Shown here: in pieces, positions 4,421 to 57,491 of the stretch
Layout of the letters: each line of letters starts with the position of its first letter
How positions within the stretch are numbered: the first letter of the stretch is position 1
Origin: Deltaproteobacteria bacterium
Lineage (GTDB): Bacteria; UBA10199; JADGCS01
Assembly (NCBI GenBank): GCA_015228875.1
Contig: JADGCS010000003.1
Location: forward strand, 20,473 to 84,472
Length of the DNA stretch: 64,000 nucleotides
Direction of reading: 5' to 3'
Made by a program: the position numbers and the translations under genes
Notes under the pieces: generated by a model
Seen by the model: the letters and a program-made list of their open reading frames with translations, nothing else
Databases searched by the model: none
Told to the model about the DNA's origin: nothing

Positions 4421-5149
4421 TTAGTCAAATTCCTTCATGTAACTTTTATAATCTGAAGAGTCTATCTTTCCCAGACGACTCAGGAGTTTTCTGGTCCGCT
4501 TATAGGCCTCTCCCATTTCATCGTCTTGCACAAAGCAGTAGGGATTATCTGATATGTTTTTTTCCCAGATTTTATAGGCAAGGTAAAAAGACTCTTCAGC
4601 CTTTTTTGTCTTTTCACTATCATCCTTGTAGGTTTTTAAGAGAAGGTCTGCGAGGTTGTAATAGGCATAGGCAAATTCCGGATCATAAAACACGGCGTTT
4701 TCAAACGAGCTGATCGCTTCAAGCACGCGGTTAAGTTCCGCCAAAACCCTGCCCTTGTAAAAATGCGCGTTGGCATGGGTCTTGTCCAGTTTTAAGACAT
4801 CGTTAAAACTCTTGAGCGCGTCGTTAAGTTCTTTAATGTAATACTGCACAAGCCCTTTATCGTACATGGCTGTGATGTTTTTGGGGTCATGCTCAATGAC
4901 AAAATTATATTCCTTGATCGAGTTTAAATAATCCCCCTTGATAAAATATTTTTTTGCAGCCTTCATGCTTTTTTGGGTTTGATCTTCTAGAGACTGTTGT
5001 TTCTGTGTTTGCGGGTCTTGCTGCTTTTGACTGGTCAGCCCCCTGTTCTTGAGTTCTTTCATGTTAAAGCGCACACCTTCGCAGGCACTTAAAATAAAGC
5101 ACAGCCATAACCCGCATAAAGCGGAAAACACTACGCGGGCGGACACCAT
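4421..5149 (-). CDS. TPR-repeat protein (possibly lipoprotein); start ambiguous (ATG at 5149 inside R1 repeat, or ATG at 5062)
   Basis: ORF track 4421..5239; TPR-like repeats (AHFYKGRVLAELNRVLEAISSFENAVFYDPEFAYAYYNLADLLLKTYK...). Start from 5149 gives MVSARVVFSALCGLWLCFILSAC with lipobox-like LSAC; 5' ORF extension 5150-5239 is read through the R1 repeat and is probably not coding. Confidence 0.55.
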   Translation of the reverse strand: MVSARVVFSALCGLWLCFILSACEGVRFNMKELKNRGLTSQKQQDPQTQKQQSLEDQTQKSMKAAKKYFIKGDYLNSIKEYNFVIEHDPKNITAMYDKGLVQYYIKELNDALKSFNDVLKLDKTHANAHFYKGRVLAELNRVLEAISSFENAVFYDPEFAYAYYNLADLLLKTYKDDSEKTKKAEESFYLAYKIWEKNISDNPYCFVQDDEMGEAYKRTRKLLSRLGKIDSSDYKSYMKEFD

Positions 5150-5194
5150 GCAAAAATTGATGCCGAAACGCGTAGAAAAAACCTTCCAAGGTTC
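5106..5194 (+). repeat. R1 dispersed ~89-bp repeat, copy 1 (orientation A)
   Basis: CATAACCCGCATAAAGCGGAAAACACTACGCGGGCGGACACCATGCAAAAATTGATGCCGAAACGCGTAGAAAAAACCTTCCAAGGTTC; internal inverted repeat CTACGCG...CGCGTAG and near-palindromic end AACCTTCCAAGGTT; 5 further copies in window. Confidence 0.85.
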
Positions 5195-5499
5195 TAAGAC
5201 AACAAGGAGGGGCAATAATGGACAACCCTTAACAGACATTAAAAAAACCTTGATTTTGATAATTAATAAACGAATGCCACCAAAGTACCAAAGTCCATTT
5301 TATGCTATTACAATGAATATGTGAACCTTTTTTTGCCCTTCAAAAAACAAAAGGAGGATAAACCTCTTTATTTTCACATCTTTTACTGGACAGGAAACTT
5401 TACATCGCGAAGTGACGATAATAAAGACAGCACAAAAATCAGATTTTTATGTAACAACAATCAGGATTATGATCTGAGACCCCAGACATAAAACACCGC

Positions 5500-8400
5500 A
5501 TGTGCGCAGAAGTTTACATCGCCAAAGACGGCCTGATCATAGAGCACGAGGATGATCTAAGCGACATAAAAGGGACGCCACCTCCTCAACTGGACTACAC
5601 GGGGAGCCGTGTGGCCCTGTGCGACCAATCACCGTCCGTGCTTGATGTAGGCGCCATCCAGCAAAGGGCCGCCGCTCTCACACGAAAAACAAATGCGCCC
5701 ACTGCCCGCACCATTCATGGTCTTGTCGATCAATACGCATCCCTGCTCACAAAAAAAAATGTCGACGAAAGGCAAAGGTATCAAGCAACCGATGAACTAT
5801 TTTTTGCAATGGACCAAACCCTGATTGAGACAACACTGGGCAACTCCGAAAATGCGTGGGCCACATGCACAGAAGAAACCGCCCAGGCCCTGTGCCATCT
5901 TGTTTACGAGACCCTGAGCAGACTTAAAGGTGCCGCTTCCTCTGCATGGTCAGAGCAGGCATCAGAACTACTTGGCAGCCTCAACTTTGCTCAACTGCTC
6001 TCCCATAAAGTACTGGCCCGATGGGCCGCATTTTCTTTAAGAACAGACTGCAATACCTCAAGGAAAGAACCGCTCCTTGATGTCCTTTTCAGGGACCTGC
6101 TCGCCATCATCGAAATACAGGAAGAACACGCCGTCATTGATCACGAACAAGAGACAAATATTAAAAACGCCTTCATTACCTGTTCGGTCACTTACAAATC
6201 GTGTCTCACAGAAACATGCCTCACACAGGTTGTTAAAACTGCGGAGAAAGAAAAAATCCCCGAACAAAAATTGTCAGAGCATCTTTTTGGCTCACCGCCC
6301 GGAGACATCATTCAATATTACCTCGAAACAGCACCGCAGAATGACGCCTATCGTTTCTGCCAGTTAAATCTGTGGGCCCTCGTTAAAAACGGACACCCCT
6401 ACGCGCGCAGCATGATCAGGGATCTCCTTGACACACAGCCGACAACCCCCCGCCCAAAAAGAGACTGGCGGGCCATCTACTCTGAAAAATATATCCCTAT
6501 TTTTTTCAGGGATGTCTTAAAAAAACTCCTCCTCCCCGATACTGATCCCGAAAATCAAGGCAACAACCCTGCCCGTTGTCCTGACCATGAATCTTTTGTC
6601 AGCGAGATTCGCCATCAACTTGCAGAAGTCATGCATGATCACTCCGAATATTCCGGTGCCCTTGTCCACACACTGCTTAACCTGGACAACAACAGCGGAG
6701 ACGAAAGTGTGGCCATAGCACTCGTACAGGGCCTTCATGAAGAGTGGGTTTTAAAAGACAAAAGAAAAAGGAGTTACTGCGAGCCCCGATTTGTGAATCT
6801 GGCACATTACTATCAATCCTATCAATTCAAGATTGAATGCACCGGAGAATACCCAGACGAATCAAGCTACGGCGTTTACCAGCAAAGACTGATTCAAGGG
6901 GTTAGTCTCCTTGCTGCACTCGTCAAAAACGGATTTCCAGGCACTCTGGAAACGCTGAAAGAGCAGATTAATTCCGACAGCGCACTCACAATGCCCGCCT
7001 TTTCTGCGATCGTGCTCATGTTTACAGAGGCAGAGGATGTCATCAATCCATCAGCACCACCGGATACAAACACCGATACAGAAGGCCAAAAACCCGATTA
7101 TCGGGAAACACTTAATAAAAAATCAGAGCAGGAAACCGCCCAGACCCTCCATGACAGCATCATCACTTTTTTCAACAAAGAGCTGGATATCAATCTTTTG
7201 TGCCGTTACAGGGGCCACTCTGCAGACGACACAAATTTATCGGCGAGCCACACCACCTTACTCCAGACTCTGTGCAGTTTTTTCGAAGACTGGGGCAACA
7301 AAAATGAGCTCTGGAGGACCTATCTGGCCATAGAAAGATTCTGCTCCCTCAACCGCAACAGTCGGGATTTTCCCATCGCCATAGAGGTCATTGGCGTTGC
7401 AGACAGACGCGATCAATATCACGGCAGGCCCCTCTCGTTACTGACCGACGTCGTTCTGTTCCCGCCCTTGCAAAACACCTGCTCCGACATCGCATTTGAA
7501 TACATTGGCACAAACCTTAAAGCCGCAGGCGAGAATAATCCGGCAGCCTTTCAATCGCACCTTAATGCCCTTGTACGGATTGCAGAAGACCGAAGTCCCA
7601 CAAACCGCCACCGCATGGCCGCTGTCGCTGTTCTGACCGAAGCAGCAGAAAAAAATCCGCGTATCGCACAGAGATTAAAGGGCCTTAACATTGACGGGCT
7701 TTTGTCCGAGATCGACACCGACGAGACATATGTCGTACATGCTTTGTGTGGGCTTGCCGAATACGGCAACCATCAGGCGTTCAATTATCTTGAACGTGCC
7801 TTTATAAACGGTGATGCAAGCCTTTTCTATAATTTTGTAAATATTCTCCATGCACACGTGCCGTCCTTTCACGAGAGGATTCTCCGTAATTGCAAACAAA
7901 TACTTTCAAACAGTGAGAGATATTCCATCGACATGACAGATACCACCCTCCAGATCCTCGGGACGGCATCAGGGTTGAACATCAAGGGAAGCTGGGCGGT
8001 TCTGTATGATCTGGTGACAACCAGCCCGGAACACGAATGGTACGTGTCGTACTGCATCCTTCTTGATCACAATGAAAAGGGACAGAACTACTCGGAAAGA
8101 GAACACATCCGCTGGCTTTACGATCAACGGCTTGCCGCAAAAATAAATCAGGGCACAGATGATGTGGCCCCGTATATAAACAATGCCGGGGAACTTGCCG
8201 GTCTGGGTTACACCGGCTCTCTTCGTGCCTTAACAAAGAAAATCAAGACCGCGCAGGGACAGAAGGGGCAAACACCCCCTGCAACCACTACAAAAGATCG
8301 CGAGACAGCAGAAAATGTTAATGACGCCAGATCAGATAACGAACCAGCCCCCATGCCCCCCGGTGAAGCCCCTGCGGCATCCACCGTGACAACTTACAAT

Positions 8401-8934: not shown

Positions 8935-9148
8935 GCCAGAACAGTGAACCTGTCTGCCTGAGAGGCATAGATGTTTACAGCATGGCGTCACGCGCAATAA
9001 TTTTAATATACAATTTACGACGTCTGTATACAATGCTTTCAATCTCAAACGGTGTTCTCTCCGCTCATACCAAAAAAAAAACAGAAAACCCTTAAAAAGA
9101 ACTCATCCCTCCCGCCAAAACTGTGATATGCTGATAAGATCGACAAAA

Positions 9149-9236
9149 GAACCTTGGAAGGTTTTTTCTACGCGTTTCGGCATCAATTTTTGCATGGTGT
9201 CCGCCCGCGTAGTGTTTTCCGCTTTATGCGAGTTAG
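9149..9236 (-). repeat. R1 repeat, copy 2 (inverted orientation)
   Basis: GAACCTTGGAAGGTTTTTTCTACGCGTTTCGGCATCAATTTTTGCATGGTGTCCGCCCGCGTAGTGTTTTCCGCTTTATGCG = reverse complement of copy 1 (~95% by eye); sits immediately upstream of the HD-GYP regulator start. Confidence 0.85.
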
Positions 9237-9243
9237 GGATCCT

Positions 9244-10191: not shown

Positions 10192-10279
10192 AGAGCAGGT
10201 TGAGTCCTTTTTTTTCTGGACCATTTTCTTAAATTTCCCGTTTGCCTGATAGACCCTTTTTGTGGCATTACCTGTCGCC

Positions 10280-12635: not shown

Positions 12636-12650
12636 CAAGTTAGTAACTTG
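12636..12650. repeat. 15-bp palindrome CAAGTTAGTAACTTG (R2 core) between convergent nfnB and mfd, overlapping mfd stop codon; flanked by GGCATCAA/TTGATGCC arms
   Basis: Perfect palindrome; same 15-mer (C/G centre) recurs at 36244, 46236, 46359. Confidence 0.7.
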
Positions 12651-15600
12651 ATGCCGCTGCGGCCTCAAATTTTTCAAGAAGCTCTATCACATATTCCAAT
12701 AATCGCTTGTCCGTATCAAGCCCGTGCTTGATCACCAATCGTCCATCGCGGGTGATAGAGAATTTTTTGGGATTCTTTTTGACAGCGCTTATAAAAATAC
12801 CCGTATCAATGGTGTGATTTTGATGAAACCCAAAAATCAGATTCTCGGAAACAGCCTTGATCTCGGAGACCAGAATCTTTTTGCAGTGGATTTTTACCTT
12901 GATGAGTTCGATGAGGTTCACCACCTCGTCCGGAAGAACACCAAAGCGGTCCTCCCACTCGCTGCGCAGCGCGGCCACATCGTCCAAGGCCTCACAGGAG
13001 CTCACCTGCTTGTAGAGAACAAGCCTGAGCTGCTGATCCATGATAAAATCGTCGGGGATTCTTGCTGCAATATTAAGGACAATCTCCGGCTCAAAGTCCT
13101 CGGGCAGCGCCGTGTTCTGCAGCTCATTAACCGCCTGCTGCAGAAGATGAACATAGAGATCGTAGCCGATCGCCGCAATATGTCCCGATTGTTCCTCGCC
13201 AAGGATATTGCCCGCCCCCCTGATTTCAAGATCCCGCGAGGCCACCTTAAACCCGCTCCCAAGTTCGGTAAAACGCTGAATGGCAGCCAGGCGTTTTTTT
13301 GCCTTCTCTGTGATCAGGCTCTCCTGAGGGATCACGAGATAACAGTAAGCCTGCCGCGAACTGCGCCCCACACGGCCCCGCAGTTGATACAGCTGAGCAA
13401 GCCCCAGACCATCGGCGCGGTTAATAATCATCGTGTTGGCATTGGGGATATCAAGCCCCGACTCGATGATGGTGGTGCAGACCAGAACATCAAACTTGTG
13501 ATTCATAAAATCGATCATGATTTCTTCGAGGTCCCCCTCGGCCATCTGCCCGTGCGCATGACGGCAGCGCGCCTCGGGGACAAGTTTGGCGATCTGCGCA
13601 GTCATTTTTTCGATTGAACGTACCCTGTTATGCACAAAATACACCTGTCCCCCGCGCCGCACCTCCTTTAATAGGGCATCGCGGATCGTGATCTCGTCAA
13701 AATAACAGGTGTAGGTCCTCACAGCAAGCCTGTCCACCGGCGGGGTGTTGATGATCGAGAGATCACGAATACCATTAAGGGCAAAATTTAAAGTGCGCGG
13801 TATCGGCGTTGCGGTCAGTGTGATCACATCGACAAGGCTTTTGATTTTTTTTATCTGCTCCTTGTGCGTCACACCAAAGCGATGTTCCTCATCGATGACC
13901 AGAAGTCCCAGATTGGTAAACTGCACATCCTTTGACAGGAGCCTGTGTGTCCCCACAAGAATATCGATACCGCCGGACTTTGTGAGACGAATCACATCCT
14001 GCTGTTCCTTTAATGAACGGAATCGCGAGAGAAGCCCCACCCTGACGGGATAATTTTTGAGACGTTCGGAAAAAGTGGCATGATGCTGAAAGGCAAGCAC
14101 TGTTGTCGGCACAAGAATCGCCACCTGTTTGTGATCACACACAGCCTTGTAGGCCGCACGCAGGGCGACTTCGGTCTTGCCATAGCCCACATCGCCGCAG
14201 ACAAGGCGATCCATCGGACGGTCTTTTTCCATGTCCTTGAGGACATCTTCGATCGTCGAGAGTTGGTCTGGTGTCTCTTCGAATTCAAATCCCGAGGCAA
14301 ACTCCTCTACCATCTCGGTGTTGGGATTAAAGGCATGACCTTTGAGCGACTCCCGCTTTGCCTGCAGGACAAGCAGTTCTTTGGCGAGTTTGCGGGCTGC
14401 CCGTTTTGCCTTTATCTTGGTCTTGATCCAGGTTTTGCCGCCCAGCTTGTCAATCTGCGGTGTGACGCCTTCTTCTGCAAAAAATCTCTGTACACGGTTA
14501 AGTTTGTCAACAGGCACATAGAGCCGGTCTCCGCCCAGATACTCAAGCAGCATGAAATCGTTTTTGTGAATATCAAAGTCAAGTTTGACAAGGCCGTTGT
14601 ATATCCCCACACCGTGATCCATGTGAATGATATAATCACCCTCGGCAAGATCGGAAAATGAGCTAAAAACCACCGTCCTGTTTTTTTGGCTTACCGCCCT
14701 TTTTGTTTTTTTGCCAAAGACCTCTTCGTCGGTGAGCCACCACTCCCTGTCCCCATGAGAAATAAACCCCTCGTGAATCTCTCCCACCATCAGCGTGATC
14801 AGCCGCTCATGACCCGCAAATGCGCCAAAATCAACACTGGGGGCTGGGGGATCAGTGCTCATGGCTGAGAACTCAGGACCGGGGGCTCTTAAAGGCAGGT
14901 CAAATCTCTTTAACAGGTCCCGCATCCTCTCCCTCTGTACTTCATTTCTGCAGACAATAAAACACGAGTACCCCTCAAGCCTTTTTTGGTTGAGTTCTCC
15001 GGCCAGAGGGGCAAGATTATGAACCTGTGTAATCTTGGCCAGTATTTTTGTTTTTATGAACAGGTTGGATTCTGTCTGGCCATCAATCTCATGAGAACCT
15101 GGGTAGGTTTTTGTTACGCGTTCCGGCATCAATTTCTGCACGGTGTCCGCTCGCGTAGTGTTTGCCGCTTTATGCGGGGTCTGAAGGGAGGTCTGCCCCC
15201 CCACAAAATCCCGATAAAGGCAGGTAAACGCCGCAAGATGTTTCTCGGCCTCGATGGGTGTTAAAAAAATCTCCTGCGGGGCGAAGATGCTTTCGATGTG
15301 TTCGGATTCTTCATGATGGCCGGCAAGGTCTTCGAGGATCTGCAGGCAAGTGCTGCCAAAACGGTTGTCAAGATCAAGTGCTATGACTGTGTCACGCGAA
15401 AGATAATCAAAAAAACTCCCTGTCTCATTGTAAAAAAGTGGTAAAAAAAATTCGATCCCGCGAAAATATATTTTGTTCTGCACAAACTCTTCGATCTGAT
15501 CCCTCTTATCCTTTGTAATTTGCCTTTCGTCTGCCCGTTTTTTTAAACAGGTCTTCCATCCCTCGTTGATGAGAGGGCTGGCGATACCTATTTCTGCTAC

Positions 15601-16302
15601 GTCTGCTGGTGATGGCTCGAGGCTTGTTGTCTTTTGTTTCAGGTAATTGAGAAAGATCTCGCGGGCCGGAATGAGCTTGACCTCAGACACTGCCTCCTTT
15701 GTGCGCTGCGTGGATGGCTCAAAGAACCGGATATTTTCCACCTCGATATCAAAAAGGTTGATGCGCACAGGGTCCGCATACTGCGGGCTGAAGACATCGA
15801 TGATATCCCCTCTCACCGCAAACTGTCCGGGATCTTCCACAAGGGCATTTCTCTCATAACCCATCACCACAAGTTTGTTAATCAGCTCCGTGCGATCGAC
15901 GAGATCCTTTTTGGCAATAACCATCACAAGGCTCTCAAACACAGCTTTTGGCAAAACCCTTCGCAGCAGGGCCTTTGCAGGTGCAATAACAAAATCGGCC
16001 TTGCCCTTTGACAGGAGATAAAGCACTTCGAGATTTTTAAGCATCACCCTGTGGTGAGGCGACAAACCGTAGTAGGGCATGACGTCGTAGGCAGGCAGGC
16101 AGTGTGTGGTTGTGCTACCAGAGAAAAAACAAATCTCGTCCCGTATTTGTTCGGCCTTTTTCTGGTCATCAACGATCAGAAGAATGGGTCTCTTGGTCTG
16201 CCGGTGAGCCGCAGCAAGGGCCTGCGCAAACCCCGCCCCATAGAATCCCTTAAGCAGGACCTCTTTGTTTTGAGACAAGACATGGCGAAGGTCTGATTTC
16301 AT
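12640..16302 (-). CDS. mfd: transcription-repair coupling factor Mfd, carrying an in-frame ~30-aa insertion from repeat R1
   Basis: 1220 aa; N-term UvrB-homology region, RNAP-interaction domain (GDYIIHMDHGVGIY), superfamily-2 helicase motifs (LVCGDVGYGKTEVA Walker A; LVIDEEHRFGV), C-terminal D7. R1 copy 3 lies inside the ORF with frame preserved (…SLQTPHKAANTTRADTVQKLMPERVTKTYPGSHEIDGQ…). Confidence 0.85.
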   Translation of the reverse strand: MKSDLRHVLSQNKEVLLKGFYGAGFAQALAAAHRQTKRPILLIVDDQKKAEQIRDEICFFSGSTTTHCLPAYDVMPYYGLSPHHRVMLKNLEVLYLLSKGKADFVIAPAKALLRRVLPKAVFESLVMVIAKKDLVDRTELINKLVVMGYERNALVEDPGQFAVRGDIIDVFSPQYADPVRINLFDIEVENIRFFEPSTQRTKEAVSEVKLIPAREIFLNYLKQKTTSLEPSPADVAEIGIASPLINEGWKTCLKKRADERQITKDKRDQIEEFVQNKIYFRGIEFFLPLFYNETGSFFDYLSRDTVIALDLDNRFGSTCLQILEDLAGHHEESEHIESIFAPQEIFLTPIEAEKHLAAFTCLYRDFVGGQTSLQTPHKAANTTRADTVQKLMPERVTKTYPGSHEIDGQTESNLFIKTKILAKITQVHNLAPLAGELNQKRLEGYSCFIVCRNEVQRERMRDLLKRFDLPLRAPGPEFSAMSTDPPAPSVDFGAFAGHERLITLMVGEIHEGFISHGDREWWLTDEEVFGKKTKRAVSQKNRTVVFSSFSDLAEGDYIIHMDHGVGIYNGLVKLDFDIHKNDFMLLEYLGGDRLYVPVDKLNRVQRFFAEEGVTPQIDKLGGKTWIKTKIKAKRAARKLAKELLVLQAKRESLKGHAFNPNTEMVEEFASGFEFEETPDQLSTIEDVLKDMEKDRPMDRLVCGDVGYGKTEVALRAAYKAVCDHKQVAILVPTTVLAFQHHATFSERLKNYPVRVGLLSRFRSLKEQQDVIRLTKSGGIDILVGTHRLLSKDVQFTNLGLLVIDEEHRFGVTHKEQIKKIKSLVDVITLTATPIPRTLNFALNGIRDLSIINTPPVDRLAVRTYTCYFDEITIRDALLKEVRRGGQVYFVHNRVRSIEKMTAQIAKLVPEARCRHAHGQMAEGDLEEIMIDFMNHKFDVLVCTTIIESGLDIPNANTMIINRADGLGLAQLYQLRGRVGRSSRQAYCYLVIPQESLITEKAKKRLAAIQRFTELGSGFKVASRDLEIRGAGNILGEEQSGHIAAIGYDLYVHLLQQAVNELQNTALPEDFEPEIVLNIAARIPDDFIMDQQLRLVLYKQVSSCEALDDVAALRSEWEDRFGVLPDEVVNLIELIKVKIHCKKILVSEIKAVSENLIFGFHQNHTIDTGIFISAVKKNPKKFSITRDGRLVIKHGLDTDKRLLEYVIELLEKFEAAAASSY
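15095..15180 (-). repeat. R1 repeat, copy 3, inserted in-frame within mfd
   Basis: GAACCTGGGTAGGTTTTTGTTACGCGTTCCGGCATCAATTTCTGCACGGTGTCCGCTCGCGTAGTGTTTGCCGCTTTATGCGGGGT; no stop codons in the mfd frame. Confidence 0.8.
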
Positions 16303-16413: not shown

Positions 16414-18735
16414 ATGATACAAACCAAAATGCGTGCAAAACTTAAACCGCAAAACGTCCTTGCCCCTGCAGGCCTTCTGGTCATTTTGTCCCTTGTGGCC
16501 CTGCTTTATTCTCAATCTCTTTCCAACCCCCTCTCCTTTGACTCAGAAAAAATCCTCGATCTCAAATTTGGACAGGATTTCTTTAAAAACCTCTCCTTTC
16601 TTAACCTGCGCTGGGTCTCTTATTTAAGTTTTTCGCTCATCAACAAACTCACAGTCAGCAGTCTCTCTTGCCAGCACGCCTTTAATATTATTATTCACGC
16701 GGCGAATATCCTTCTCATCTTTGTCCTGCTTAAATCCTTTTTGACACATGTTATCCATAACCCGCATAAAGCGGAGTGCATTGCGATCAAACATGAAGGG
16801 TTTCATGTTTGGCGCTATGCGCCAGATACTACGCGGGCGGACACCATGCAAAAATTGATCCCGAAACGCGTAGAAAAAACCTTCCAAGGTTCCAAAGAAA
16901 CACGTAACAATCCAATGCCCGTTTTATATGCATTGGCGGGCTGCCTTTTTTTTGGGATCAACCCGGCCGCAGTATACGGCGTCGCCTACCTCGTCCAGCG
17001 TTCCATTCTGCTCGCCACCTTCTTTTCGCTCTTGACACTCATGGCCTACCTTAAGGGTTTGTCGGGCAGCAGAAAAATATACCTCTGTCTCTCTGTGGTC
17101 TTTTATTTTCTTGCCATCCACTCCAAGGAACACGCGATCATGATCCCCTGCGTGCTGCTTGTCCTGACTGCTTTATTTTACAAAATCGACAGCGCATTTC
17201 TTAAAAAATCGGGGTGGGTCTATGTATTTTACGCGGCCGTTGCCATCGATATAATCCTACGGACAAAAGGCATTATAGGAACTACCTACGAACCCCACAT
17301 CAGATTTGTCTTTGAAACAGGGACCACGGAGTCCGCAGGGGTCTTGTCGGGCGTTGATCAAAACCATCTGTATCCGCTCAGCATTATCAATCAGGGGGCC
17401 CTTTTCTTCCGTTATTTGTTTTTGTTTTTTGTTCCCTATACCCGCGGGATGTCCATTGATATTCATCTTTCATTCCCAAAACACTTTATCGCGTGGCCAG
17501 AGACATGCGGTTTTTTGCTGTTTGTTCTTGTGCCTGTTTTTTGTGTTTTTGTGGCCCGAAAAAACACGGCGTGGAAAATGCTCGCCCTCTCACTTCTTTA
17601 TCCGTGGACCCTCTTCTTGACAGAGTTGGCTGTCGTACGAATCACGGAGCCCTTTGTCCTTTACAGGGCCTATATCTGGATGAGCGGGGTCGTCTTTCTC
17701 TTTGCGGCCCTTGCGTTGACAAGACATGCAAAAAAAATCCTGTGTTTGTTATTTTTATATACTGTGCCGCTTTTTTTCTTTGCCCACGAAAGGCTCTCCA
17801 CCTTCACAACACTTTCCAGGTTGTGGCAGGATGCCGTAATCAAGCTGCCATCAGACGATGTCCCCGGAAGTTACAGGCCCTACAACAGCCTGGGCTACGC
17901 ACTGTTGCTGGAGGGAAGGCCGGAAGAGGCCCTGATACCGATAAAAAAATCCATCACCATTGCCCCCGACTACCCGATGGCTCACTACAATCTCGCTTGG
18001 GGACTCGAAAAAATGGGAGACCTCAAGGGGTCTATCCTTCACTATAAAGAAGCCATCACCTATCAGCCCAATTATCTCGACGCCCGCGTAAATCTTGGCG
18101 CCCTGCTCATCCAGACGCAAGAATATCAAGAGGCCTTTACCCATTTGGCCATAGCAGAACAAATCAATCCCGAGTCACAAATGGTCCTTAATAACCTTGG
18201 CGGCCTGTATTACAAACTTAATCAATGGGAAAAAGCGATGGCCTATTTTAAAAAGGTACTGTCGATCGATCCCAATCATGCCATTGCTTACAACAACACA
18301 GGCCTGGCCCTGACCAACCTTGACAAAAAGACAGAGGCCCTTGATTACTATCTCAAGGCAGTCGCGCTCGACCCCGGCTTTATTGATGCCTACGCCAATC
18401 TCGGAAAGTATTATTTCGATAGTGGCGATCTTGACACAGCCACGACCCACTATAAAAAAACAATCGAACTCAACCCAAAATACGTGCATGGGTACTTTAT
18501 GCTGGGATACATTGCCTTTACAAGAGGCAAAACCAGTGAGGCACTCGCCCTGTTTGAGCGTGTCACGACCCTTAAGCCCGATCACCACGACGCTTATTAC
18601 AACATGGGGTTGATCCTGATGGGGCTTAAAAAGGACAAAGAGGCCCTGTTTTATCTGGACAGGGCGCTCACGCTTGACCCTGAAGATCAAGACGCAAAAG
18701 AGGCCATTATAGAATTAAAAACACGGGCACAATAA
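16414..18735 (+). CDS. multi-pass membrane protein with C-terminal TPR repeats (TMTC/O-mannosyltransferase-like architecture), carrying in-frame R1 insertion
   Basis: 773 aa; N-terminal TM helices, C-terminal TPR array (AHYNLAWGLEKMGDLKGSILHYKEAITYQPNYLDARVNLGALL...). R1 copy 4 is translated in-frame (NPHKAECIAIKHEGFHVWRYAPDTTRADTMQKLIPKRVEKTFQGSKE). Confidence 0.65.
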   Translation: MIQTKMRAKLKPQNVLAPAGLLVILSLVALLYSQSLSNPLSFDSEKILDLKFGQDFFKNLSFLNLRWVSYLSFSLINKLTVSSLSCQHAFNIIIHAANILLIFVLLKSFLTHVIHNPHKAECIAIKHEGFHVWRYAPDTTRADTMQKLIPKRVEKTFQGSKETRNNPMPVLYALAGCLFFGINPAAVYGVAYLVQRSILLATFFSLLTLMAYLKGLSGSRKIYLCLSVVFYFLAIHSKEHAIMIPCVLLVLTALFYKIDSAFLKKSGWVYVFYAAVAIDIILRTKGIIGTTYEPHIRFVFETGTTESAGVLSGVDQNHLYPLSIINQGALFFRYLFLFFVPYTRGMSIDIHLSFPKHFIAWPETCGFLLFVLVPVFCVFVARKNTAWKMLALSLLYPWTLFLTELAVVRITEPFVLYRAYIWMSGVVFLFAALALTRHAKKILCLLFLYTVPLFFFAHERLSTFTTLSRLWQDAVIKLPSDDVPGSYRPYNSLGYALLLEGRPEEALIPIKKSITIAPDYPMAHYNLAWGLEKMGDLKGSILHYKEAITYQPNYLDARVNLGALLIQTQEYQEAFTHLAIAEQINPESQMVLNNLGGLYYKLNQWEKAMAYFKKVLSIDPNHAIAYNNTGLALTNLDKKTEALDYYLKAVALDPGFIDAYANLGKYYFDSGDLDTATTHYKKTIELNPKYVHGYFMLGYIAFTRGKTSEALALFERVTTLKPDHHDAYYNMGLILMGLKKDKEALFYLDRALTLDPEDQDAKEAIIELKTRAQ
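16756..16892 (+). repeat. R1 repeat, copy 4 (orientation A) with nested 48-bp insertion, located in-frame inside the TPR membrane-protein gene
   Basis: CATAACCCGCATAAAGCGGA[GTGCATTGCGATCAAACATGAAGGGTTTCATGTTTGGCGCTATGCGCCAG]ATACTACGCGGGCGGACACCATGCAAAAATTGATCCCGAAACGCGTAGAAAAAACCTTCCAAGGTTCC; insert contains perfect hairpin AAACATGAA-GGGT-TTCATGTTT. Confidence 0.8.
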
Positions 18736-21699: not shown

Positions 21700-21872
21700 T
21701 AAAAACATCGGGCAATCCAATCGGGGATTGTGTTCATGCCCGTGGCTCTTTGGGTATATGCGCGTGTCAGGTTCAGATCGAAATTATCGAGCGCAATGGC
21801 CTCTTTACATTCGCGCGGGCAATCAGCGGTTTTTTGTCTTGTTGCAAACACAGTCAAAATCCCCAACCATCC
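21700..21872 (-). pseudogene. ~170-bp remnant homologous to an internal segment of the STAND Ser/Thr kinase gene (cf. 29170-29340)
   Basis: ~85% nucleotide identity by eye over ~140 nt (GGGATTGYGTT...CAGATCGAAATTATCGAG...CCTCTTTACATTCG...TTTTGTCTTGTTGCAAACACAGTCA) to the NTPase-domain coding region of 27406..30516; lies in the intergenic gap between 21650 and 21980 with no complete ORF. Confidence 0.45.
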
Positions 21873-36243: not shown

Positions 36244-36362
36244 CAAGTTACTAACTTGACTTTGATGCCCGAAGGAAATCCCCTTGGGGGACGCGGTTGA
36301 ATTCTTCCATCTTGCGAGGGATGCACCCGCGCTCTGTCTACCTTGAAATTCCTAGACATTCA
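36244..36362. repeat. R2 repeat copy a (contains 15-bp palindrome CAAGTTACTAACTTG + ~90-bp conserved tail)
   Basis: CAAGTTACTAACTTGACTTTGA[TGCCCGAAGGAAATCCCCTTGGGGGAC]GCGGTTGAATTCTTCCATCTTGCGAGGGATGCACCCGCGCTCTGTCTACCTTGAAATTCCTAGACATTC; homologous to 46359-46449. Confidence 0.75.
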
Positions 36363-38015: not shown

Positions 38016-38090
38016 AAACGGAATAAAAATAAAAAAAGTTAAACTTTTTTCACTTTTTGGCCGGTTAACACGCAACCTGATAGGGTTTAT
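38016..38090. promoter_or_regulatory. R3 shared upstream element, copy 1 (50 bp upstream of 38136 gene)
   Basis: AAACGGAATAAAAATAAAAAAAGTTAAACTTTTTTCACTTTTTGGCCGGTTAACACGCAACCT…GATAGGGTTTAT; near-identical copy at 42266-42357; contains palindrome AAAAAAGTTAAACTTTTTT. Confidence 0.6.
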
Positions 38091-42265: not shown

Positions 42266-42357
42266 AAACGGAATAAAAATAAAAAAAGTTAAACTTTTTT
42301 CACTTTTTGGCCGGTTAACGCGCAACCTTTGTATCAAATATAGCGATAGGGCGTATC
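42266..42357. promoter_or_regulatory. R3 shared upstream element, copy 2 (upstream of 42398 gene)
   Basis: AAACGGAATAAAAATAAAAAAAGTTAAACTTTTTTCACTTTTTGGCCGGTTAACGCGCAACCT + 16-bp insertion + GATAGGGCGTAT. Confidence 0.6.
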
Positions 42358-42397: not shown

Positions 42398-44587
42398 ATG
42401 AACTTTATGAAAAATACAACCCTCATACTCTGCATCCTGTCCCTTCTCGTTTTACACACAGCCTGTAGGTCAAAAGCAACGACAGAAGAATTTAACTCTG
42501 ATTATTCAGAAAGTGACGAGAACGACAACAGCACCAGCGATGAAAAGATAGACCTTGGTCAATCCGATATCCCGCAAACCTATATGCTTGTTGATTTTGG
42601 CGGCTCTGCCCAAGACAATATTTATGGGATCGAAGAATGGAACACCGTGATCACTGGATCCGGCGTCGCATATGTCACCCAAAAAGAAATTACCGGAGTC
42701 ACGCTCACCACAGAAACGGAAAAGTTTGCAAGTCATGTGGGGATGACCGGCCCTGCCCTTAAACTGGACGCCGGCGACATGGTCGTTGCCTACTGGCACA
42801 ACGCAACCAATGGTATGGTCACCCTCTGGCGACCCCTCATCAGTTTTGTGGATATCGATCAGCCCGAAGACAAAGAGGGGGCTCCTCAGTGGTATGCCAT
42901 GAAAACTTTCGACGGCCCGACACGATTTGACTACATTCACGATGGCAGGCCCATGAAAAGTGTTTATGTCATTACATCAACAGAGACGGCGCCGGGTAAT
43001 TCTCCCCCAACGGAGGGGTGGCGCAGTGTGATCAACTTCAATCAGAACAGCACTTTCGCGGGGATTATCCTGGACAAGGTAGAAATCATCAAGGCCGCGC
43101 AATGCAAGCCGTCCGCCCCTTCAAATCTCAACCTCACTCTCAACGCAGCAAACCCGACATCCAGTGTCAAACTCGCGTGGACAGCATCTGTCGGTGATCC
43201 CCCTGTCAAGTATTACAAAATCATACGCAATGGACTCTGGATCGACAAAACCCTGGAGACACAATATACAGACTGGCACCTCAATCACTCCACACAATAT
43301 ACGTACACGATCACTGCCATTAATACTGTGGGGATCAGCAGCGAAAAATCCGGGGAGGCCGCCATCACCACTGCTGTTTTTTCATCCGCAAAACTCATCA
43401 ACCCTCAGCATGATCTGGAATACCTCGGCGCCTTCAGGTTTCCCACACAGACAATGGGCGCGTCCGGCTGGGCCTACAGACTCGGCGATCTCACTTACTA
43501 TCCCGATGGAGAAGGGGGGGCTTTTGGTCCCGGTGCTGCAGACGGTTATCCCGGAACTCTCTTCGCGTACGGGCACATCCATCAAAGAATGATCGCCGAG
43601 ATCAGCATCCCCGAGCCCATCATTGCAGACAGCTACGAAGAGCTCCCCGCAGCCGTTCACATTCAACCTTTCGCAGATGTCATCCCCGATAATAACCCCG
43701 GTTCATCCGACAAGGCATCACCAGGCTTGGAATATCTTGAATCCAACGATTTGTTCTTCACCATCTTTGGCGACAACTACAATGTGAGTTACAATAAAAA
43801 ACTGTCACATGGCGCTTTTAAGATGAACCCGAATCTTGCGAACGCATTTGTCTACGGACTCTGGTGGATTGGCAACAAGGAAGATTCCGACAATCCCAAC
43901 TATTATGCCTACGCGCATTTTCTTTTTGAAATCCCTCAAGCATGGTCCGACACCCACACACCCGGCAAACAGATTGCCTCGGGTGCCAGCAGGGCAGGTG
44001 GTGGGCCGCAGGGACCAGGGCTGGTTGCCGTACAAACCAATGAGCAGCCCGCACCAGACGCGGAACTGGGGTTTACAACACTTCTGCAATACGACCTTAA
44101 CGGCAAGGGCCCTGTCACCATGAACGGCTGGATCGAAAACGATGCGTGGACGGGCGGCGCCTGGCTCGAGGCCGGTTCACGATCTGCTGTGGTCTTTGTG
44201 GGTTCGAAGGCCCGTGGTGAGTACTTTTATGGTTATGCCGATGGGACTGTCTACACAGATGTGATCGACAATATCCCGCCCAATACCTCAAGTAGTGATG
44301 TTGGCAGCAAAGGTGGGGGTGCCCGCAGCTACGAATCAATGATGATTTTTTACAACCCCGATGACCTTGCAAGTGTCGCAAATGGTTCATTAACGTCAAC
44401 CGCGCCGCAACCCTACGCTGCGATTGTTCTCGATGATTACCTTCTCAAAAAAAACACCTACAGTCCAGATACCAAGGCACTGCTTGGTGAGACGGCCTAT
44501 GACAGAGAGGGAAATCTTCTTTTTGTCATCGAAAACAATGTTGCTGTCCCCAAGGTTGATATTATTCATGTCTGGAAAATAAAATAG
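42398..44587 (+). CDS. secreted lipoprotein with fibronectin type III domain
   Basis: MKNTTLILCILSLLVLHTAC signal/lipobox; FN3-like segment PSAPSNLNLTLNAANPTSSVKLAWTASVGDPPVKYYKIIRNGLWIDKTLETQYTDWHLNHSTQYTYTITAINTVGIS. Confidence 0.6.
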   Translation: MNFMKNTTLILCILSLLVLHTACRSKATTEEFNSDYSESDENDNSTSDEKIDLGQSDIPQTYMLVDFGGSAQDNIYGIEEWNTVITGSGVAYVTQKEITGVTLTTETEKFASHVGMTGPALKLDAGDMVVAYWHNATNGMVTLWRPLISFVDIDQPEDKEGAPQWYAMKTFDGPTRFDYIHDGRPMKSVYVITSTETAPGNSPPTEGWRSVINFNQNSTFAGIILDKVEIIKAAQCKPSAPSNLNLTLNAANPTSSVKLAWTASVGDPPVKYYKIIRNGLWIDKTLETQYTDWHLNHSTQYTYTITAINTVGISSEKSGEAAITTAVFSSAKLINPQHDLEYLGAFRFPTQTMGASGWAYRLGDLTYYPDGEGGAFGPGAADGYPGTLFAYGHIHQRMIAEISIPEPIIADSYEELPAAVHIQPFADVIPDNNPGSSDKASPGLEYLESNDLFFTIFGDNYNVSYNKKLSHGAFKMNPNLANAFVYGLWWIGNKEDSDNPNYYAYAHFLFEIPQAWSDTHTPGKQIASGASRAGGGPQGPGLVAVQTNEQPAPDAELGFTTLLQYDLNGKGPVTMNGWIENDAWTGGAWLEAGSRSAVVFVGSKARGEYFYGYADGTVYTDVIDNIPPNTSSSDVGSKGGGARSYESMMIFYNPDDLASVANGSLTSTAPQPYAAIVLDDYLLKKNTYSPDTKALLGETAYDREGNLLFVIENNVAVPKVDIIHVWKIK

Positions 44588-45654: not shown

Positions 45655-46235
45655 AACCAAAAAATCCAATCCATGTTTTAGAACGCATACACAGGGACAA
45701 AGCGCGCAACCTGAAAAGCCCTGAATGAGGGATGAACCCCCATCAAATACCGATGCACAGACGCAAACAGGGCATCAACTGCAGTCCTAAAATTCATATG
45801 ACCACTACCACCAGATTCCCCACCGCCTGTGGGCCATGGAGAATTTAAGGGCGGTCCTCCGGGAACATGAGGCATGACAACACCGCCGCTACCGCCGGTC
45901 TGTCCGGGAGGTGAGATATGTTCACCACCGGGGACGTGGGGATGCGGGCCTGATGGCCTGTGGGGTTGCGGGGAAGCCTCCGGTGGCCTGCCATGCACGC
46001 TCATCATGACATAAGAGTCCAGGGCCTGTGGTCTCGCCGATGTTGTCCTTGCGGGCGCAAACGCACTCCACGCTGCTGTTGACGAAGCCATCACTGATGG
46101 CCATACTGCTCTCATTCCAAACATATATTCCCCTTTCTGCTCTTTGTTTTTTTACGGTTCATGCATGGGAATTTCAAAGTCAATCGAGCGCGGGTACATC
46201 CCATGCAAAACAGAAGAACTCAGCCGCGTCATAGA

Positions 46236-46250
46236 CAAGTTAGTAACTTG
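46236..46250. repeat. R2 core palindrome CAAGTTAGTAACTTG (isolated copy)
   Basis: Exact 15-mer identical to 12636-12650. Confidence 0.7.
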
Positions 46251-46358
46251 TGTTTTTGTTATCGGGTTCTGCTGCGTGATGTTGCGTAAAATCACAAAAA
46301 AATTTGCCACCAAGAACCACCGATCCGTTATCCTAAAAACATCTATAGGGCGTGTTGA

Positions 46359-46449
46359 CAAGTTACTAACTTGACTTTGACGCGGTTGTATTCTTCCATT
46401 TTGCGAGGAATGCACCCGCGCTCTGTCGACTTTGAAATTCCTATACATC
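46359..46449. repeat. R2 repeat copy b
   Basis: CAAGTTACTAACTTGACTTTGACGCGGTTGTATTCTTCCATTTTGCGAGGAATGCACCCGCGCTCTGTCGACTTTGAAATTCCTATACAT. Confidence 0.75.
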
Positions 46450-54487: not shown

Positions 54488-55235
54488 GGACCTCCCTTGC
54501 AAGTTTAAGGACGTCCTTTTTTGTCGCGTTGCCCTGCACGATGATCTCGCCAGAGTCTGGCCCGTGATTAAACAAAAGATCAACAATCGAGAGGTGTGAG
54601 ACAAAACCACCGAGGTTTTGGGTGTATGCCGGGTGCTGGTAGCTCTGGTAATAGACCTTGATGTGATTATTTTTAAACGGGGTCTCGTCTATGTAATCCC
54701 TCCCCTGACAACCCGTGACGCAAAGGTCTGCCTTAAAACGAAGGCAGTGCTCCAAAACCCTCCCTGATTTTTTTTTGGCAAACCCAAGCTGCGATTCTTT
54801 TTCTACCCTTACCTTGATGCCAAGGGCCTCTATAAAAAATCCAAGCTGGTGAAAATTAAGGTCCGAAAGAAGCCCCCACTCCCTGTTAAAATACATGTCA
54901 TAAAAAAAATCGGCGTATCTTTTAAAGTAGGGGGTTTGTGTGTAGTGGCACCTTAAGGTCTCCCAATGGATGCGTGGCCAGTCAAATTTTGTGCCCGCCT
55001 TTGAGCGGTCGATGTGGATATCCTTGATGAGCCTGGACGCGCTGTGTTTGAGGTCAACGGGGACCGTCATCCAGAACGCGCCATTGGCCGTCTTGATACG
55101 GTTTCTGTTGTTAAAATCCCGCGTGAGGTACTGCACATCATCCATGTAGATAAAAATATCGGCAAGGCCAATCTTGTGAAAGAGTCCAATCCACGGGAGA
55201 TAGGCCGGTTGATGTCCGGTGATGATGGTTGTCAT
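54474..55235 (-). CDS. WbqC-family protein
   Basis: MTTIITGHQPAYLPWIGLFHKI… matches WbqC-like N-terminus (HQPxYLPWxGxF). Confidence 0.7.
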   Translation of the reverse strand: MTTIITGHQPAYLPWIGLFHKIGLADIFIYMDDVQYLTRDFNNRNRIKTANGAFWMTVPVDLKHSASRLIKDIHIDRSKAGTKFDWPRIHWETLRCHYTQTPYFKRYADFFYDMYFNREWGLLSDLNFHQLGFFIEALGIKVRVEKESQLGFAKKKSGRVLEHCLRFKADLCVTGCQGRDYIDETPFKNNHIKVYYQSYQHPAYTQNLGGFVSHLSIVDLLFNHGPDSGEIIVQGNATKKDVLKLAREVHALG

Positions 55236-56293
55236 GTCACATCCTTAAGCAGGATCATCTGGTCTTTTTTAATGTCACGATTAAGGCATTTTCCGATAAT
55301 CCTGTCGCGCTCGCAGGGTTTAAGCCCGTGCCCCGGCCTCTTGTACACTATGTGCGCCTGCGTGAGCTTAAGGCCCTTTTTAAGATCCAGGGCGGCCACA
55401 ACACTGCGGCGGTGTTTAAGCCTCATCTCGCACTCGGACGGCGCAGGGGCGATTTTGGGATCGCCCAGTATTGCCTCGGTCTCCCTGATGGCCTCAATAT
55501 ATTTTTTGAGTGCGTTTGGAGGAAGCGAAAACCGATGGTCGGGCCCCTTTAAGGTGCGTGACAGAGTGATGTGTTTCTCGATCACGCGCGCCCCCAGCGA
55601 GACCGCAACAACAGCCGCGTGCGTCCCCTCTGTGTGATCTGAGTAACCTGTCAAGACCCCGTACCGATCATGCAGGGACACAAGCCTTAAAAGATTGGCC
55701 TCGTGATGCGGTGTGGGGTAAAGCGACGTGCAGTGAAGAAGGATCACATCTTTGTGGTTGCGCCTTGTAAATATTTGGAGCGCCGTGTCGATCTCATCTT
55801 GATCTGCCATCCCCGTGGAAAGAATCACCGGTTTGCCGATCTTTGCAACACATTCTAAAAAATCGATGTTGATGAGGTCCTCGGAGGAAATTTTAAAAGC
55901 ATTTACCCCCAGCTTGTCCAGAAACAGCGCGGATTCACTGTCGCAGGGTGTGGACAGGAAACCAACCCGTCTTTTTTTGCAATGCCGAATGGTCAACTCG
56001 TACCAGTCAAGCGGGAGCTCCAGCCTTTTAAACATGGCGTAGGTTGTCTCGGTGATCCTCTTTTTGCCGTGCCTGTAAGAATATCGCGCGGTACGGTCCG
56101 CGATAAACTCGTCCGTGCGAAAGGTCTGAAACTTGACGAATGCAGCCCCTGCGTCGGCCGCCACATCAATGAGTCTGAGGACGTATGGAAAACGGGCATT
56201 GTGATTAATGCCGGCCTCTGCAATCACGCAAACAGGGGCATTTTGCGCAATGCTCACTTGGCCGATCTGAACCTGATGATTAAAACAGTCCAT
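55232..56293 (-). CDS. N-acetylneuraminate/pseudaminate/legionaminate synthase family (NeuB/PseI/LegI-like) with C-terminal SAF domain
   Basis: PVCVIAEAGINHN…FVKFQTF TIM-barrel signature; C-terminal antifreeze-like domain. Confidence 0.8.
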   Translation of the reverse strand: MDCFNHQVQIGQVSIAQNAPVCVIAEAGINHNARFPYVLRLIDVAADAGAAFVKFQTFRTDEFIADRTARYSYRHGKKRITETTYAMFKRLELPLDWYELTIRHCKKRRVGFLSTPCDSESALFLDKLGVNAFKISSEDLINIDFLECVAKIGKPVILSTGMADQDEIDTALQIFTRRNHKDVILLHCTSLYPTPHHEANLLRLVSLHDRYGVLTGYSDHTEGTHAAVVAVSLGARVIEKHITLSRTLKGPDHRFSLPPNALKKYIEAIRETEAILGDPKIAPAPSECEMRLKHRRSVVAALDLKKGLKLTQAHIVYKRPGHGLKPCERDRIIGKCLNRDIKKDQMILLKDVT

Positions 56294-56301
56294 CGTTATA
56301 A

Positions 56302-56390
56302 CATAACCCGCACAAAGCTGAAAACACTACGCGGTCTGGCACATCGTAAAATATTGTTGCCGAAACGCGTAGAAAAAACCTACCTAGTCC
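56302..56390 (+). repeat. R1 repeat, copy 5 (diverged centre)
   Basis: CATAACCCGCACAAAGCTGAAAACACTACGCGGTCTGGCACATCGTAAAATATTGTTGCCGAAACGCGTAGAAAAAACCTACCTAGTCC. Confidence 0.75.
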
Positions 56391-56486
56391 TTCGACAACT
56401 TAATTTTTATCTTTCTAGATTGCTCAGGACTAGTGCTGAGCGTTTAATAATTTTCTAATAAAGAAAATTATTAAATTGTCGAAGCA

Positions 56487-57326
56487 CTAGGTTCCGATAA
56501 AGGATTTAAAATTACCGGCATAAATTTTTTTATTCAGCCCCTTGTCAAGTTTGAGTGCCTCGAATTTTTTGATCACTGCCCCCTGACTGTGGTCGGGCTG
56601 AAACGGAAAGTCCGTGCCAAAAACAAGGTGATGCGGCTCCAACACTTGGGAGGCAAGTCCTACAAGTCGCATGGACTCTGGAACAGATGTAATAAAACGC
56701 ACATTGTTAAAATACTTTTTAACCGGTCCATAGGTGTAATGAAAACAGAGGAGCCCACCAAGGTGCGGGGCCAGGACCTTGAGTTCGGGATGCCTTTTAA
56801 TCAACGCAAAGAGGTCTGCAGGGCCATCGCCCTGTGGTGCGCCAAGCACATAACTCACATGGGGAAGCAGCAGCATCTTGTTTTTAACAAGACACTCGGC
56901 AAAGGAAAAAAAAACCTTGCTGCTTAAAGACACACCCTGCCACGCAGGAATAACCTTGACACCAAGAAAGCCGTAATCGTTTTTAAATCTTTGAACCGCA
57001 TCGCGCGATTTTTTTTTATTGACCAGATTGACAATGCCAAGCCCATACAGCCTGTCGGGGTAACGCCGGCACGACTCATATATATAGCGGTTGTTCTGCT
57101 GGTTGAGTGCGTCATCGCAAAAGGGGAGTCCCATGATGAGAGAACTGCCAATGCGGTTTTGATCCATTGACCGGATGAGCGCCCCTGTGGTTGCAAGTTT
57201 CAGGGCCTTTTTGCCGTCGGGGTGTGTGAGGATGGCTCGTCTTAAAAAGGGTTCTCGACCGGGACGCATCCCCATCTCTTTGGTGATTTCGGGTGAAATC
57301 AGATGAACCTCGGCATCGATAATCAT
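56487..57326 (-). CDS. amidohydrolase-2 family (TIM-barrel metal-dependent hydrolase)
   Basis: MIIDAEVHL… N-terminus and GTDFPF C-terminal motif typical of PF04909. Confidence 0.6.
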   Translation of the reverse strand: MIIDAEVHLISPEITKEMGMRPGREPFLRRAILTHPDGKKALKLATTGALIRSMDQNRIGSSLIMGLPFCDDALNQQNNRYIYESCRRYPDRLYGLGIVNLVNKKKSRDAVQRFKNDYGFLGVKVIPAWQGVSLSSKVFFSFAECLVKNKMLLLPHVSYVLGAPQGDGPADLFALIKRHPELKVLAPHLGGLLCFHYTYGPVKKYFNNVRFITSVPESMRLVGLASQVLEPHHLVFGTDFPFQPDHSQGAVIKKFEALKLDKGLNKKIYAGNFKSFIGT

Positions 57327-57402
57327 ATTAAAAATCCCCGTTCGTCCCAATCATAGACCCTCATAACGTGCAATGACAAGAATAATATCGATTGCCCCCT
57401 CT

Positions 57403-57491
57403 CATAACCCGCATGAAGCGAAAGATACTACGCGGGCCGGCTCCTCATAAAATATTGATGCCGAAACGCGTAGAAAAAACCTACTTAGGTT
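57403..57491 (+). repeat. R1 repeat, copy 6
   Basis: CATAACCCGCATGAAGCGAAAGATACTACGCGGGCCGGCTCCTCATAAAATATTGATGCCGAAACGCGTAGAAAAAACCTACTTAGGTTC. Confidence 0.8.

Follow-up and report, generated by a model that had tools for sequence, protein, structure and literature searches.

A small hairpin-forming repeat, apparently inserted in frame in protein-coding genes of an uncultured deltaproteobacterium-like bacterium

We analyzed a 64,000-nucleotide (nt) stretch (the window) of a metagenome-assembled genome (MAG; assembly GCA_015228875.1, contig JADGCS010000003.1, positions 20,473 to 84,472 of the forward strand), and specifically a dispersed repeat within it that we designate R1. We consider it likely that R1 is a selfish, non-autonomous DNA repeat that is specific to its lineage, was amplified recently, and is kept in genes only where it is harmless. 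Copies of R1 occur both between genes and, in open frames, within them, including in the transcription-repair coupling factor gene mfd; the residues that they encode there are absent from orthologous proteins, and R1 peptides were detected in this one MAG only.

Six copies of R1 in the window

A first-pass annotation of this DNA had reported six copies of the repeat, and re-reading of the sequence recovered R1 at each of those places. We confirmed that they constitute one family, as follows (boundaries are certain only to 1-2 nt).

Copy 1, 5106 to 5195, plus strand: short A-type form, 90 nt, antisense within the open reading frame (ORF) 4421-5239(-)
Copy 2, 9148 to 9237, minus strand: short A-type form, intergenic
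Copy 3, 15094 to 15183, minus strand: short A-type form, in frame in mfd
Copy 4, 16756 to 16893, plus strand: long A-type form, 138 nt, in frame in a TPR membrane-protein gene
Copy 5, 56302 to 56392, plus strand: B-type form, 91 nt, with the 3' end variant ...CCTAGTCCTT, intergenic
Copy 6, 57403 to 57493, plus strand: B-type form, 91 nt, intergenic, separating the divergent genes 56487-57350(-) and 57535-59046(+)

An nhmmer search with a profile of the copies identified exactly these six in the window (E 1e-21 to 1e-27); elsewhere in the window nothing fell below E=0.01 except the 5' part of copy 4. The conserved 20-mer GAAACGCGTAGAAAAAACCT matched six times in the window at three or fewer mismatches, compared with no matches in 100 shuffles, and two other R1 segments yielded the same counts. 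Pairwise identity, initially put at 80-95%, extends over a slightly wider range, 74-98%. Copies 1 and 2 are 98% identical, and copy 3 is the most diverged (88% to copy 1). Copies 1-4 form subfamily A, in which copy 4 represents the 138-nt long form and the others the 90-nt short form; copies 5 and 6 form subfamily B, which has one additional base and a different central loop. Two intergenic copies lie close to start codons and antisense to the gene concerned: for copy 2 this is a response-regulator/HD-GYP gene, whose ATG (9244) has the left end of the copy 6 nt upstream, and copy 5 is 8 nt upstream of the start of a NeuB-family gene (55232-56293(-)).

In-frame copies in mfd and a membrane-protein gene

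Copies 3 and 4 are located within two long ORFs.

12640 to 16302, minus strand: mfd, transcription-repair coupling factor, 1220 aa, MBF0103913.1, host of copy 3
16414 to 18735, plus strand: membrane protein of 773 aa, multi-pass and with TPR repeats at its C-terminal end, MBF0103914.1, host of copy 4

Consistent with the first-pass annotation, the two copies have the same element frame and the same orientation relative to their hosts, contain no stop codon, and encode the peptides quoted there. A frameshift splitting mfd at this site had been raised as a possible refutation; mfd is not split, and both ORFs are intact and annotated at full length at NCBI under the accessions above.

Copy 3 adds 29-30 residues to Mfd (TPHKAANTTRADTVQKLMPERVTKTYPGS, residues about 375-403). 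The window protein is 100% identical to MBF0103913.1, which is encoded on an 86,071-bp contig and has neighbors with HQM16_* locus tags, and the nearest Mfd proteins elsewhere are 57-64% identical. When we aligned it with 19 orthologues (39-62% identity), every one of them had a gap opposite the insert, within a variable linker, and comparison with E. coli Mfd similarly placed the insert between two alignable blocks. In an AlphaFold2 model of residues 1-520 (76 sequences; mean predicted local distance difference test score, pLDDT, 88; predicted template modeling score 0.89), residues 371-400, which comprise most of the insert, had pLDDT values of 46-51 and were modeled as an excursion between two well-modeled strands.

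Copy 4 adds 46 residues to the TPR membrane protein (residues about 115-160). An exhaustive HMMER search with this protein returned hundreds of homologues; of the 150 listed, almost every one aligns as two separate stretches, and the main stretch begins only at query residue about 160-175. Fifteen homologues examined by alignment lack the 46 residues, which fill a short loop between two transmembrane helices. In a related genome the gene is likewise divergent from mfd, and this syntenic orthologue lacks exactly the insert stretch. A paralog of the TPR membrane protein, encoded on another contig of the same MAG (P0121), carries R1 in the same inter-helix loop and in the opposite orientation, which suggests that the loop is either an insertion hot spot or especially tolerant.

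These comparisons support in-frame insertion of R1 into mfd and the TPR membrane-protein gene. They also bear on the proposal that the inserts are native or ancestral parts of the proteins, or artifacts of metagenome assembly or binning. The source is indeed a MAG, and repeats can produce chimeric joins; nevertheless, the residues are missing from all orthologues and homologues, both flanks continue the host protein in frame (a mis-join would need the frame to be restored every time), and the same 90 nt are also found in intergenic DNA. We give this proposal almost no credence.

A probable third host gene

Copy 1 points to a further host, absent from the first-pass annotation.

4421 to 5239, minus strand: TPR protein, probable third host gene, with an ancestral lipoprotein signal peptide that appears, from the sequence, to be interrupted by copy 1

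Copy 1 is read here in an open antisense frame. Removal in silico of exactly 5106-5195 joins MSVKGCPLLPLLVVL to LCFILSAC, creating an L-S-A-C lipobox and yielding MSVKGCPLLPLLVVLLCFILSAC, which is a lipoprotein signal peptide of canonical form. Ahead of the ATG at 5239 there is a weak ribosome-binding motif, AAGG. With copy 1 in place, an internal ATG at 5149 would yield MVSARVVFSALCGLWLCFILSAC, which is also signal-peptide-like. Copy 1 thus probably sits in frame, antisense, within the lipoprotein signal peptide of this gene.

The NCBI annotation around copy 1 appears to be distorted by the repeat. The TPR gene is given there as starting at 5062 (MBF0103907.1; 4424-5062(-)), downstream of the apparent interrupted signal peptide, and an 87-aa "hypothetical protein", HQM16_01160 (P0122), is called over copy 1 (window 5049-5324(+)).

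R1 peptides elsewhere in the same genome

We searched 5.8 billion proteins, including NCBI nr, with chimeric queries in which the open frames of R1 were concatenated. Such peptide searches detect R1 only in open frames, and the resulting counts are lower bounds, biased to in-frame cases. They returned 18 proteins, all with HQM16_ tags, among which P0122 is merely the ORF over copy 1. At least 16 further proteins with R1 peptides are encoded on 13 other contigs of the same MAG; the first-pass annotation had extrapolated to hundreds of copies genome-wide, and those counted here are the six in 64 kb and at least these 16. R1 is found inside at least 18 of its protein genes, which are unrelated and carry it at arbitrary positions. 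The proteins group by the peptide they contain.

Short sense peptide, HNPHKAENTTRADTMQKLMPKRVEKTFQG(S/F): P0123, P0282 (PNP/UDP phosphorylase family), P0283 (FabD-like acyltransferase), P0284, P0285 and P0286 (ABC ATPase)
Long sense peptide, with ECIAIKHEGFHVWRYAPD: P0275 (GT2), P0276 (Asp/Glu racemase), P0277, P0278, P0279 (AAA ATPase), P0280 (IspE) and P0281 (ABC ATPase)
Antisense peptide, EPWKVFSTRFGINFCMVSARAVFSALCGL: P0121
B-type copy: P0124 (NrfH), in which it replaces the C-terminus and supplies the tail

The element peptide NPHKAE...KRVEKTFQG is common to Mfd, the TPR membrane protein, IspE, the FabD-like protein, ABC ATPases and others. P0279 terminates within R1 at a contig end, as expected where an assembly is broken by a high-copy repeat. 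Comparison with solved structures again placed the additional residues between alignable blocks: in P0283, residues 2-44 and 46-279 of DisD align on either side of the element-coded query residues 46-75 (one of which may correspond to DisD residue 45), and about 46 residues in P0280 and about 30 in P0286 are extra between aligned blocks.

R1 has one open sense frame and two open antisense frames. The sense peptide, which occurs in soluble enzymes, is hydrophilic and basic (grand average of hydropathy, GRAVY, -1.5), and the antisense peptide is hydrophobic (GRAVY +0.8) and was seen only in the membrane-protein loop of P0121 and in the signal peptide described above. The A-type forms, of 90 and of 138 nt, are found inside genes. 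Of the B-type (91 nt) there are three instances: the two intergenic copies and the one at the 3' end of the NrfH gene. In many proteins the R1 peptides are identical or one residue apart, and this near-identity, together with that of the DNA copies, indicates that R1 spread recently.

We also considered whether the inserts are left untranslated, being either taken out of the mRNA or skipped over by the ribosome. Translational-bypass elements exist in yeast mitochondria and in T4 gene 60, and R1 is strongly structured. Skipping, on the other hand, gives no reason for stop-free frames, for lengths that are multiples of three, or for the 91-nt subfamily lying outside genes, and the sites occupied are the loops, linkers and termini expected of translated extras. 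We regard this possibility as extremely improbable.

Hairpin architecture and constraint

Fold predictions for RNA and DNA, a check proposed in the first-pass annotation, gave three local hairpins with unpaired ends for each copy, in both the minimum-energy and the centroid structures. The stems are CCGC-ATAAA-GCGG; CTACGCG...CGCGTAG with an inner GGC/GCC; and AACCT...AGGTT. Relative to shuffled sequences, the folds had z-scores of -1.5 to -4.2. The hairpins of copy 1, placed by folds and pair counts, and the additional module of copy 4 are as follows.

Hairpin 1 of copy 1, 5112 to 5124, plus strand: CCGC-ATAAA-GCGG
Hairpin 2 of copy 1, 5131 to 5175, plus strand: outer CTACGCG/CGCGTAG, inner GGC/GCC, variable loop
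Hairpin 3 of copy 1, 5180 to 5193, plus strand: the palindrome AACCTTCCAAGGTT
Extra hairpin module of the long form (copy 4), 16776 to 16825, plus strand: unique in the window

The long form gains a net 48 nt through this self-complementary module, which lies between hairpins 1 and 2 and whose peptide, ECIAIKHEGFHVWRYAPD, recurs in seven other proteins of the MAG. Two motifs described in the first-pass annotation proved less uniform than stated. The inverted repeat CTACGCG...CGCGTAG is present in five of the six copies, with CGCGTAA in the mfd copy, and the palindromic tail AACCTTCCAAGGTT is found in copies 1, 2 and 4, with variants in the others.

The ends of the element are ATAACCCGC... (5') and ...AAGGTTCT (3'). 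At least three variants of the 3' end occur (...TTCCAAGGTTC, ...TACTTAGGTTC and ...TACCTAGTCCTT), the last encoding EKTYLVL in copy 5 and EKHCLVL in IspE (P0280) and an ABC ATPase (P0281); the R1 family is therefore a mosaic of exchangeable modules. A TA target duplication was considered and rejected, TA being present on the right side in only two of six copies. Neither the FabD-like site nor the signal-peptide site showed duplicated host residues.

Three observations concern the level at which R1 is constrained. Stem columns are less variable than the remaining columns (10 of 40 versus 26 of 51; Fisher p=0.017; six DNA copies), and between the subfamilies one stem pair, in the hairpin 3 palindrome, shows a compensatory change from T:A to A:T. 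Variable sites are evenly distributed over the codon positions (13/10/12; six copies). Finally, between copy 1 and the mfd copy there are 11 nucleotide differences, which fall in 10 codons, only two of these codon changes being synonymous. Because the codon positions vary evenly, the stems vary less, and the changes in mfd are mostly non-synonymous, it is the hairpins, and not the peptide, that look constrained.

Selection for the peptide itself, as a portable module of 30 or 46 residues (an interaction tag, degron or regulatory loop) grafted on many proteins, is harder to reconcile with these data, although at least 15 functionally diverse proteins carry the peptide with hardly a change and both of its lengths correspond to multiples of three. 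There is no excess of changes at third codon positions, the older mfd copy has accumulated mostly non-synonymous changes, the same DNA occurs between genes, and the antisense frame gives an unrelated hydrophobic peptide. In addition, none of the Pfam domains in the scanned host proteins extends over the peptide, the Mfd insert is modeled at low confidence, and near-identity is accounted for by recency. We judge selection of the peptide to be very unlikely.

The hairpins could instead mark R1 as a cis-acting signal that serves the host (a protein-binding site, a structure involved in mRNA stability or processing, a small RNA or an attenuator) and was multiplied because it is useful, the coding copies being incidental. 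The better conservation of stems than of loops, the compensatory pair, the stability of the folds relative to shuffles (z -1.5 to -4.2), and the antisense placement of copies 2 and 5, both of the informative intergenic copies, 6-8 nt upstream of a start codon would agree with such a role. Orientation is informative in those two intergenic copies only, however, and recognition structures of a mobile element equally predict stem conservation. At least 18 copies lie at arbitrary positions in unrelated protein genes; there is no Rfam match, and no promoter- or terminator-like site recurs consistently within the copies. We therefore consider a host-serving signal unlikely.

Distribution and the search for a mobilizing enzyme

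No exact match to an R1 22-mer was found in the GTDB species genomes, and a degenerate R1 pattern had none in JGI metagenomes or in viral contigs (IMG/VR). A looser pattern of the central hairpin gave six metagenome matches, which we attribute to chance, there being no similarity beyond the pattern. Approximately 66 kb around mfd in three relatives (58-60% Mfd identity) contained neither an R1 copy nor a similar dispersed repeat. An Mfd-based locus search gave only distant phyla, none with R1, and peptide patterns missed close relatives. Against Rfam 15 there was no match of R1 to any family; the best on copy 1, a snoRNA model at E=3.4, is noise. The sole gathering-level Rfam match in the window is a tRNA gene at 62939-63013(-). 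Promoter and terminator scans revealed nothing consistent inside R1 copies. An intein was rejected as an explanation, R1 being far too short and lacking intein motifs.

Proposed behavior of R1

We propose that R1 is a modular element of three local hairpins, with an optional fourth, that spreads through an enzyme encoded elsewhere in the genome and lands between genes and within genes alike. Selection would then act as a filter, such that genic copies would persist only if (i) they measure a multiple of three nucleotides (90 or 138 nt), (ii) they are read in a stop-free frame, and (iii) they lie in a tolerant loop, linker, terminus or signal peptide. The R1 peptide would be a passenger and not a selected product, and the conserved hairpins would presumably serve as handles for the mobilizing enzyme.

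Several points weigh against this proposal. We found no convincing terminal inverted repeats, the best ends being ATAACC/GGTTCT (five of six bases), and no target-site duplication or flanking direct repeat at any of the six copies, although a 1-nt duplication is possible given the precision of the boundaries. Pfam scans of the 64-kb window revealed no transposase or RAYT-like domain. Mobility is inferred solely from how the copies are dispersed and how similar they are, and the inserts are presumably translated. The stem conservation is based on six sequences, and the whole evidence base is one MAG. The peptide searches were incomplete, returning neither Mfd nor the TPR membrane protein among their matches. 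Finally, ascertainment accounts in part for the impression that R1 is always in frame: the window is the unbiased sample, and in it three of three genic copies are open, which has a probability by chance of about 1/8.

Relation to known repeat families

The first-pass annotation had likened R1 to the Rickettsia palindromic elements (RPE), for which in-frame tolerance was taken to be a hallmark. The likeness holds for behavior, but tolerance of this kind is not peculiar to RPE: in-frame insertion has been described for RPE and, less intensively, for ERIC, YPAL, the 107-bp Correia elements and the QMITEs of Coxiella (PMC2229807, PMC10969869, PMC5896051). The in-frame colonization of housekeeping genes is best known from Rickettsia and has been termed "unique but recurrent", with scattered cases elsewhere. 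Both RPE and R1 are small (about 100-150 bp), dispersed and structured, and occur in intergenic DNA as well as, unusually often, in frame in conserved housekeeping genes (Ogata et al. 2000, 2002, as summarized in PMC2229807 and PMC10969869). Each encodes a single conserved peptide, always read in one frame, at fold-tolerant sites, and no associated transposase is known for either. They differ in architecture, in that RPE form one long stem-loop from paired ends with a 12-bp terminal inverted repeat, while R1 forms three to four separate local hairpins with unpaired ends; R1 also comes in two lengths that keep the frame, 90 and 138 nt. Moreover, the host of R1 is an uncultured deltaproteobacterium-like MAG and not Rickettsia, and queries with all open R1 frames returned no Rickettsia protein, likeness being judged here by peptide.

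The remaining families that enter genes likewise share some features with R1. ERIC/IRU, YPAL/RU-2 and the 107-bp Correia elements have terminal inverted repeats, usually TA termini, target duplications and an end-to-end fold (Delihas 2007/2008, PMC2229807), none of which we found in R1. The YPAL frame is hydrophobic and contributes part of the signal peptide in YPO1552 (PMC2229807); the antisense frame of R1, in a lipoprotein signal peptide and a membrane-protein loop, parallels it. QMITE1 and QMITE2 of Coxiella burnetii are small repeats restricted to their lineage, which in some cases extend or interrupt ORFs without loss of frame and in some supply C-terminal residues (PMC5896051), to which the R1-encoded tail of NrfH is comparable. 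They are classed as MITEs (miniature transposable elements with inverted repeats) and lie mainly at gene 3' ends, whereas R1 insertions are mainly internal, in housekeeping enzymes. In comparison with a strict MITE, which would also be related to the ends of an autonomous IS, R1 is small, multicopy and without a transposase of its own; terminal inverted repeats and target duplication were not observed. R1 is not a member of the RPE, ERIC, YPAL, Correia or QMITE families: it has no sequence or peptide similarity to them (for RPE, as judged by peptide), no terminal inverted repeats, no end-to-end pairing and no target duplication.

Caulobacter CIR elements resemble R1 in that their 5' and 3' parts fold independently (PMC2229807), but differ in having stops in all frames and in being strictly intergenic. 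REP, BIME and REPIN sequences are, like R1, based on hairpins and not on terminal inverted repeats, are built as modular mosaics, and lack target duplication. REPs carry a conserved GTAG/CTAC tetranucleotide; the central stem of R1, CTAC...GTAG, is in this respect a lead only. REPs are 20-40 nt long, are essentially extragenic and typically flank a RAYT gene, in contrast to the 90-138 nt and three to four hairpins of R1. Half of the R1 copies in the window are intragenic and there are no paired inverted dyads; among the traits that define REP/REPIN sequences only the CTAC...GTAG stem was found. We raise as a tentative possibility that R1 may be mobilized as single-stranded DNA by a hairpin-recognizing HUH/Y1 transposase, by analogy with REP/RAYT or IS200/IS605-derived elements; such mobilization would fit because R1 is without terminal inverted repeats and target duplication.

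Other repeats in the window and in a related genome

Repeats other than R1 were also noted. There are three copies of a second dispersed repeat, about 70-95 nt long (36290-36359, 46161-46251 and 46358-46448), and two of them, inverted, jointly form a 98-aa ORF (46152-46448(-)). Its copies each end in ...CAT and may be N-terminal segments of small paralogous ORFs. A stretch of 144 nt occurs twice with 86% identity, at 21713-21856 (intergenic, upstream of 21980) and at 29175-29318; the latter lies inside a Ser/Thr-kinase/TPR gene (27406-30516(-)), where it is apparently native ATPase-like coding sequence, and its intergenic counterpart probably represents a piece of a duplicated gene. Two long genes that lack Pfam domains (38136-39893 and 42398-44587) each have upstream of them a copy of a 63-nt repeat (38016-38078 and 42266-42328; 98% identity) that includes the palindrome AAAAAAAGTTAAACTTTTTT; this repeat may represent the shared regulatory region of paralogs. 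Within a 977-aa MopE-type metal-binding/FG-GAP gene (21980-24913), positions 22517-23208 comprise five tandem coding repeats of about 160 nt. Lastly, a related MAG (GCA_024233595.1, L084) contains a perfect 71-nt direct repeat (20839-20909 and 21128-21198, 289 nt apart) near a GIY-YIG-like small ORF; its sequence is unrelated to R1.

Significance

R1 behaves much as RPE do, in a host and with a sequence unrelated to theirs and with hairpins of another architecture, and it reaches at least 18 proteins in a part of the genome that was sampled indirectly. Its spread makes it possible to test afresh in what way random insertions of peptides are tolerated or exploited by proteins. It also carries a warning for annotation, as start codons are miscalled and spurious ORFs predicted around copies (the TPR gene started at 5062, and HQM16_01160). 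In addition, R1 offers a lead to the enzyme that mobilizes repeats lacking terminal inverted repeats and target duplications.

A stronger reading, which we think doubtful, is that R1 could be a second independent phenomenon of the RPE type at full scale, that is, an actively spreading "protein-coding palindrome" built for life inside genes. This could draw on the multiple-of-three lengths, the stop-free, hydrophilic, loop-forming sense frame, the stop-free hydrophobic antisense frame and the non-Rickettsia host. If it is true, and R1 occupies dozens to hundreds of genes with filled and empty sites, the genome would constitute a natural, recent insertion scan of many housekeeping proteins, and R1 would provide a tractable route to the mobilization mechanism of RPE-like elements.

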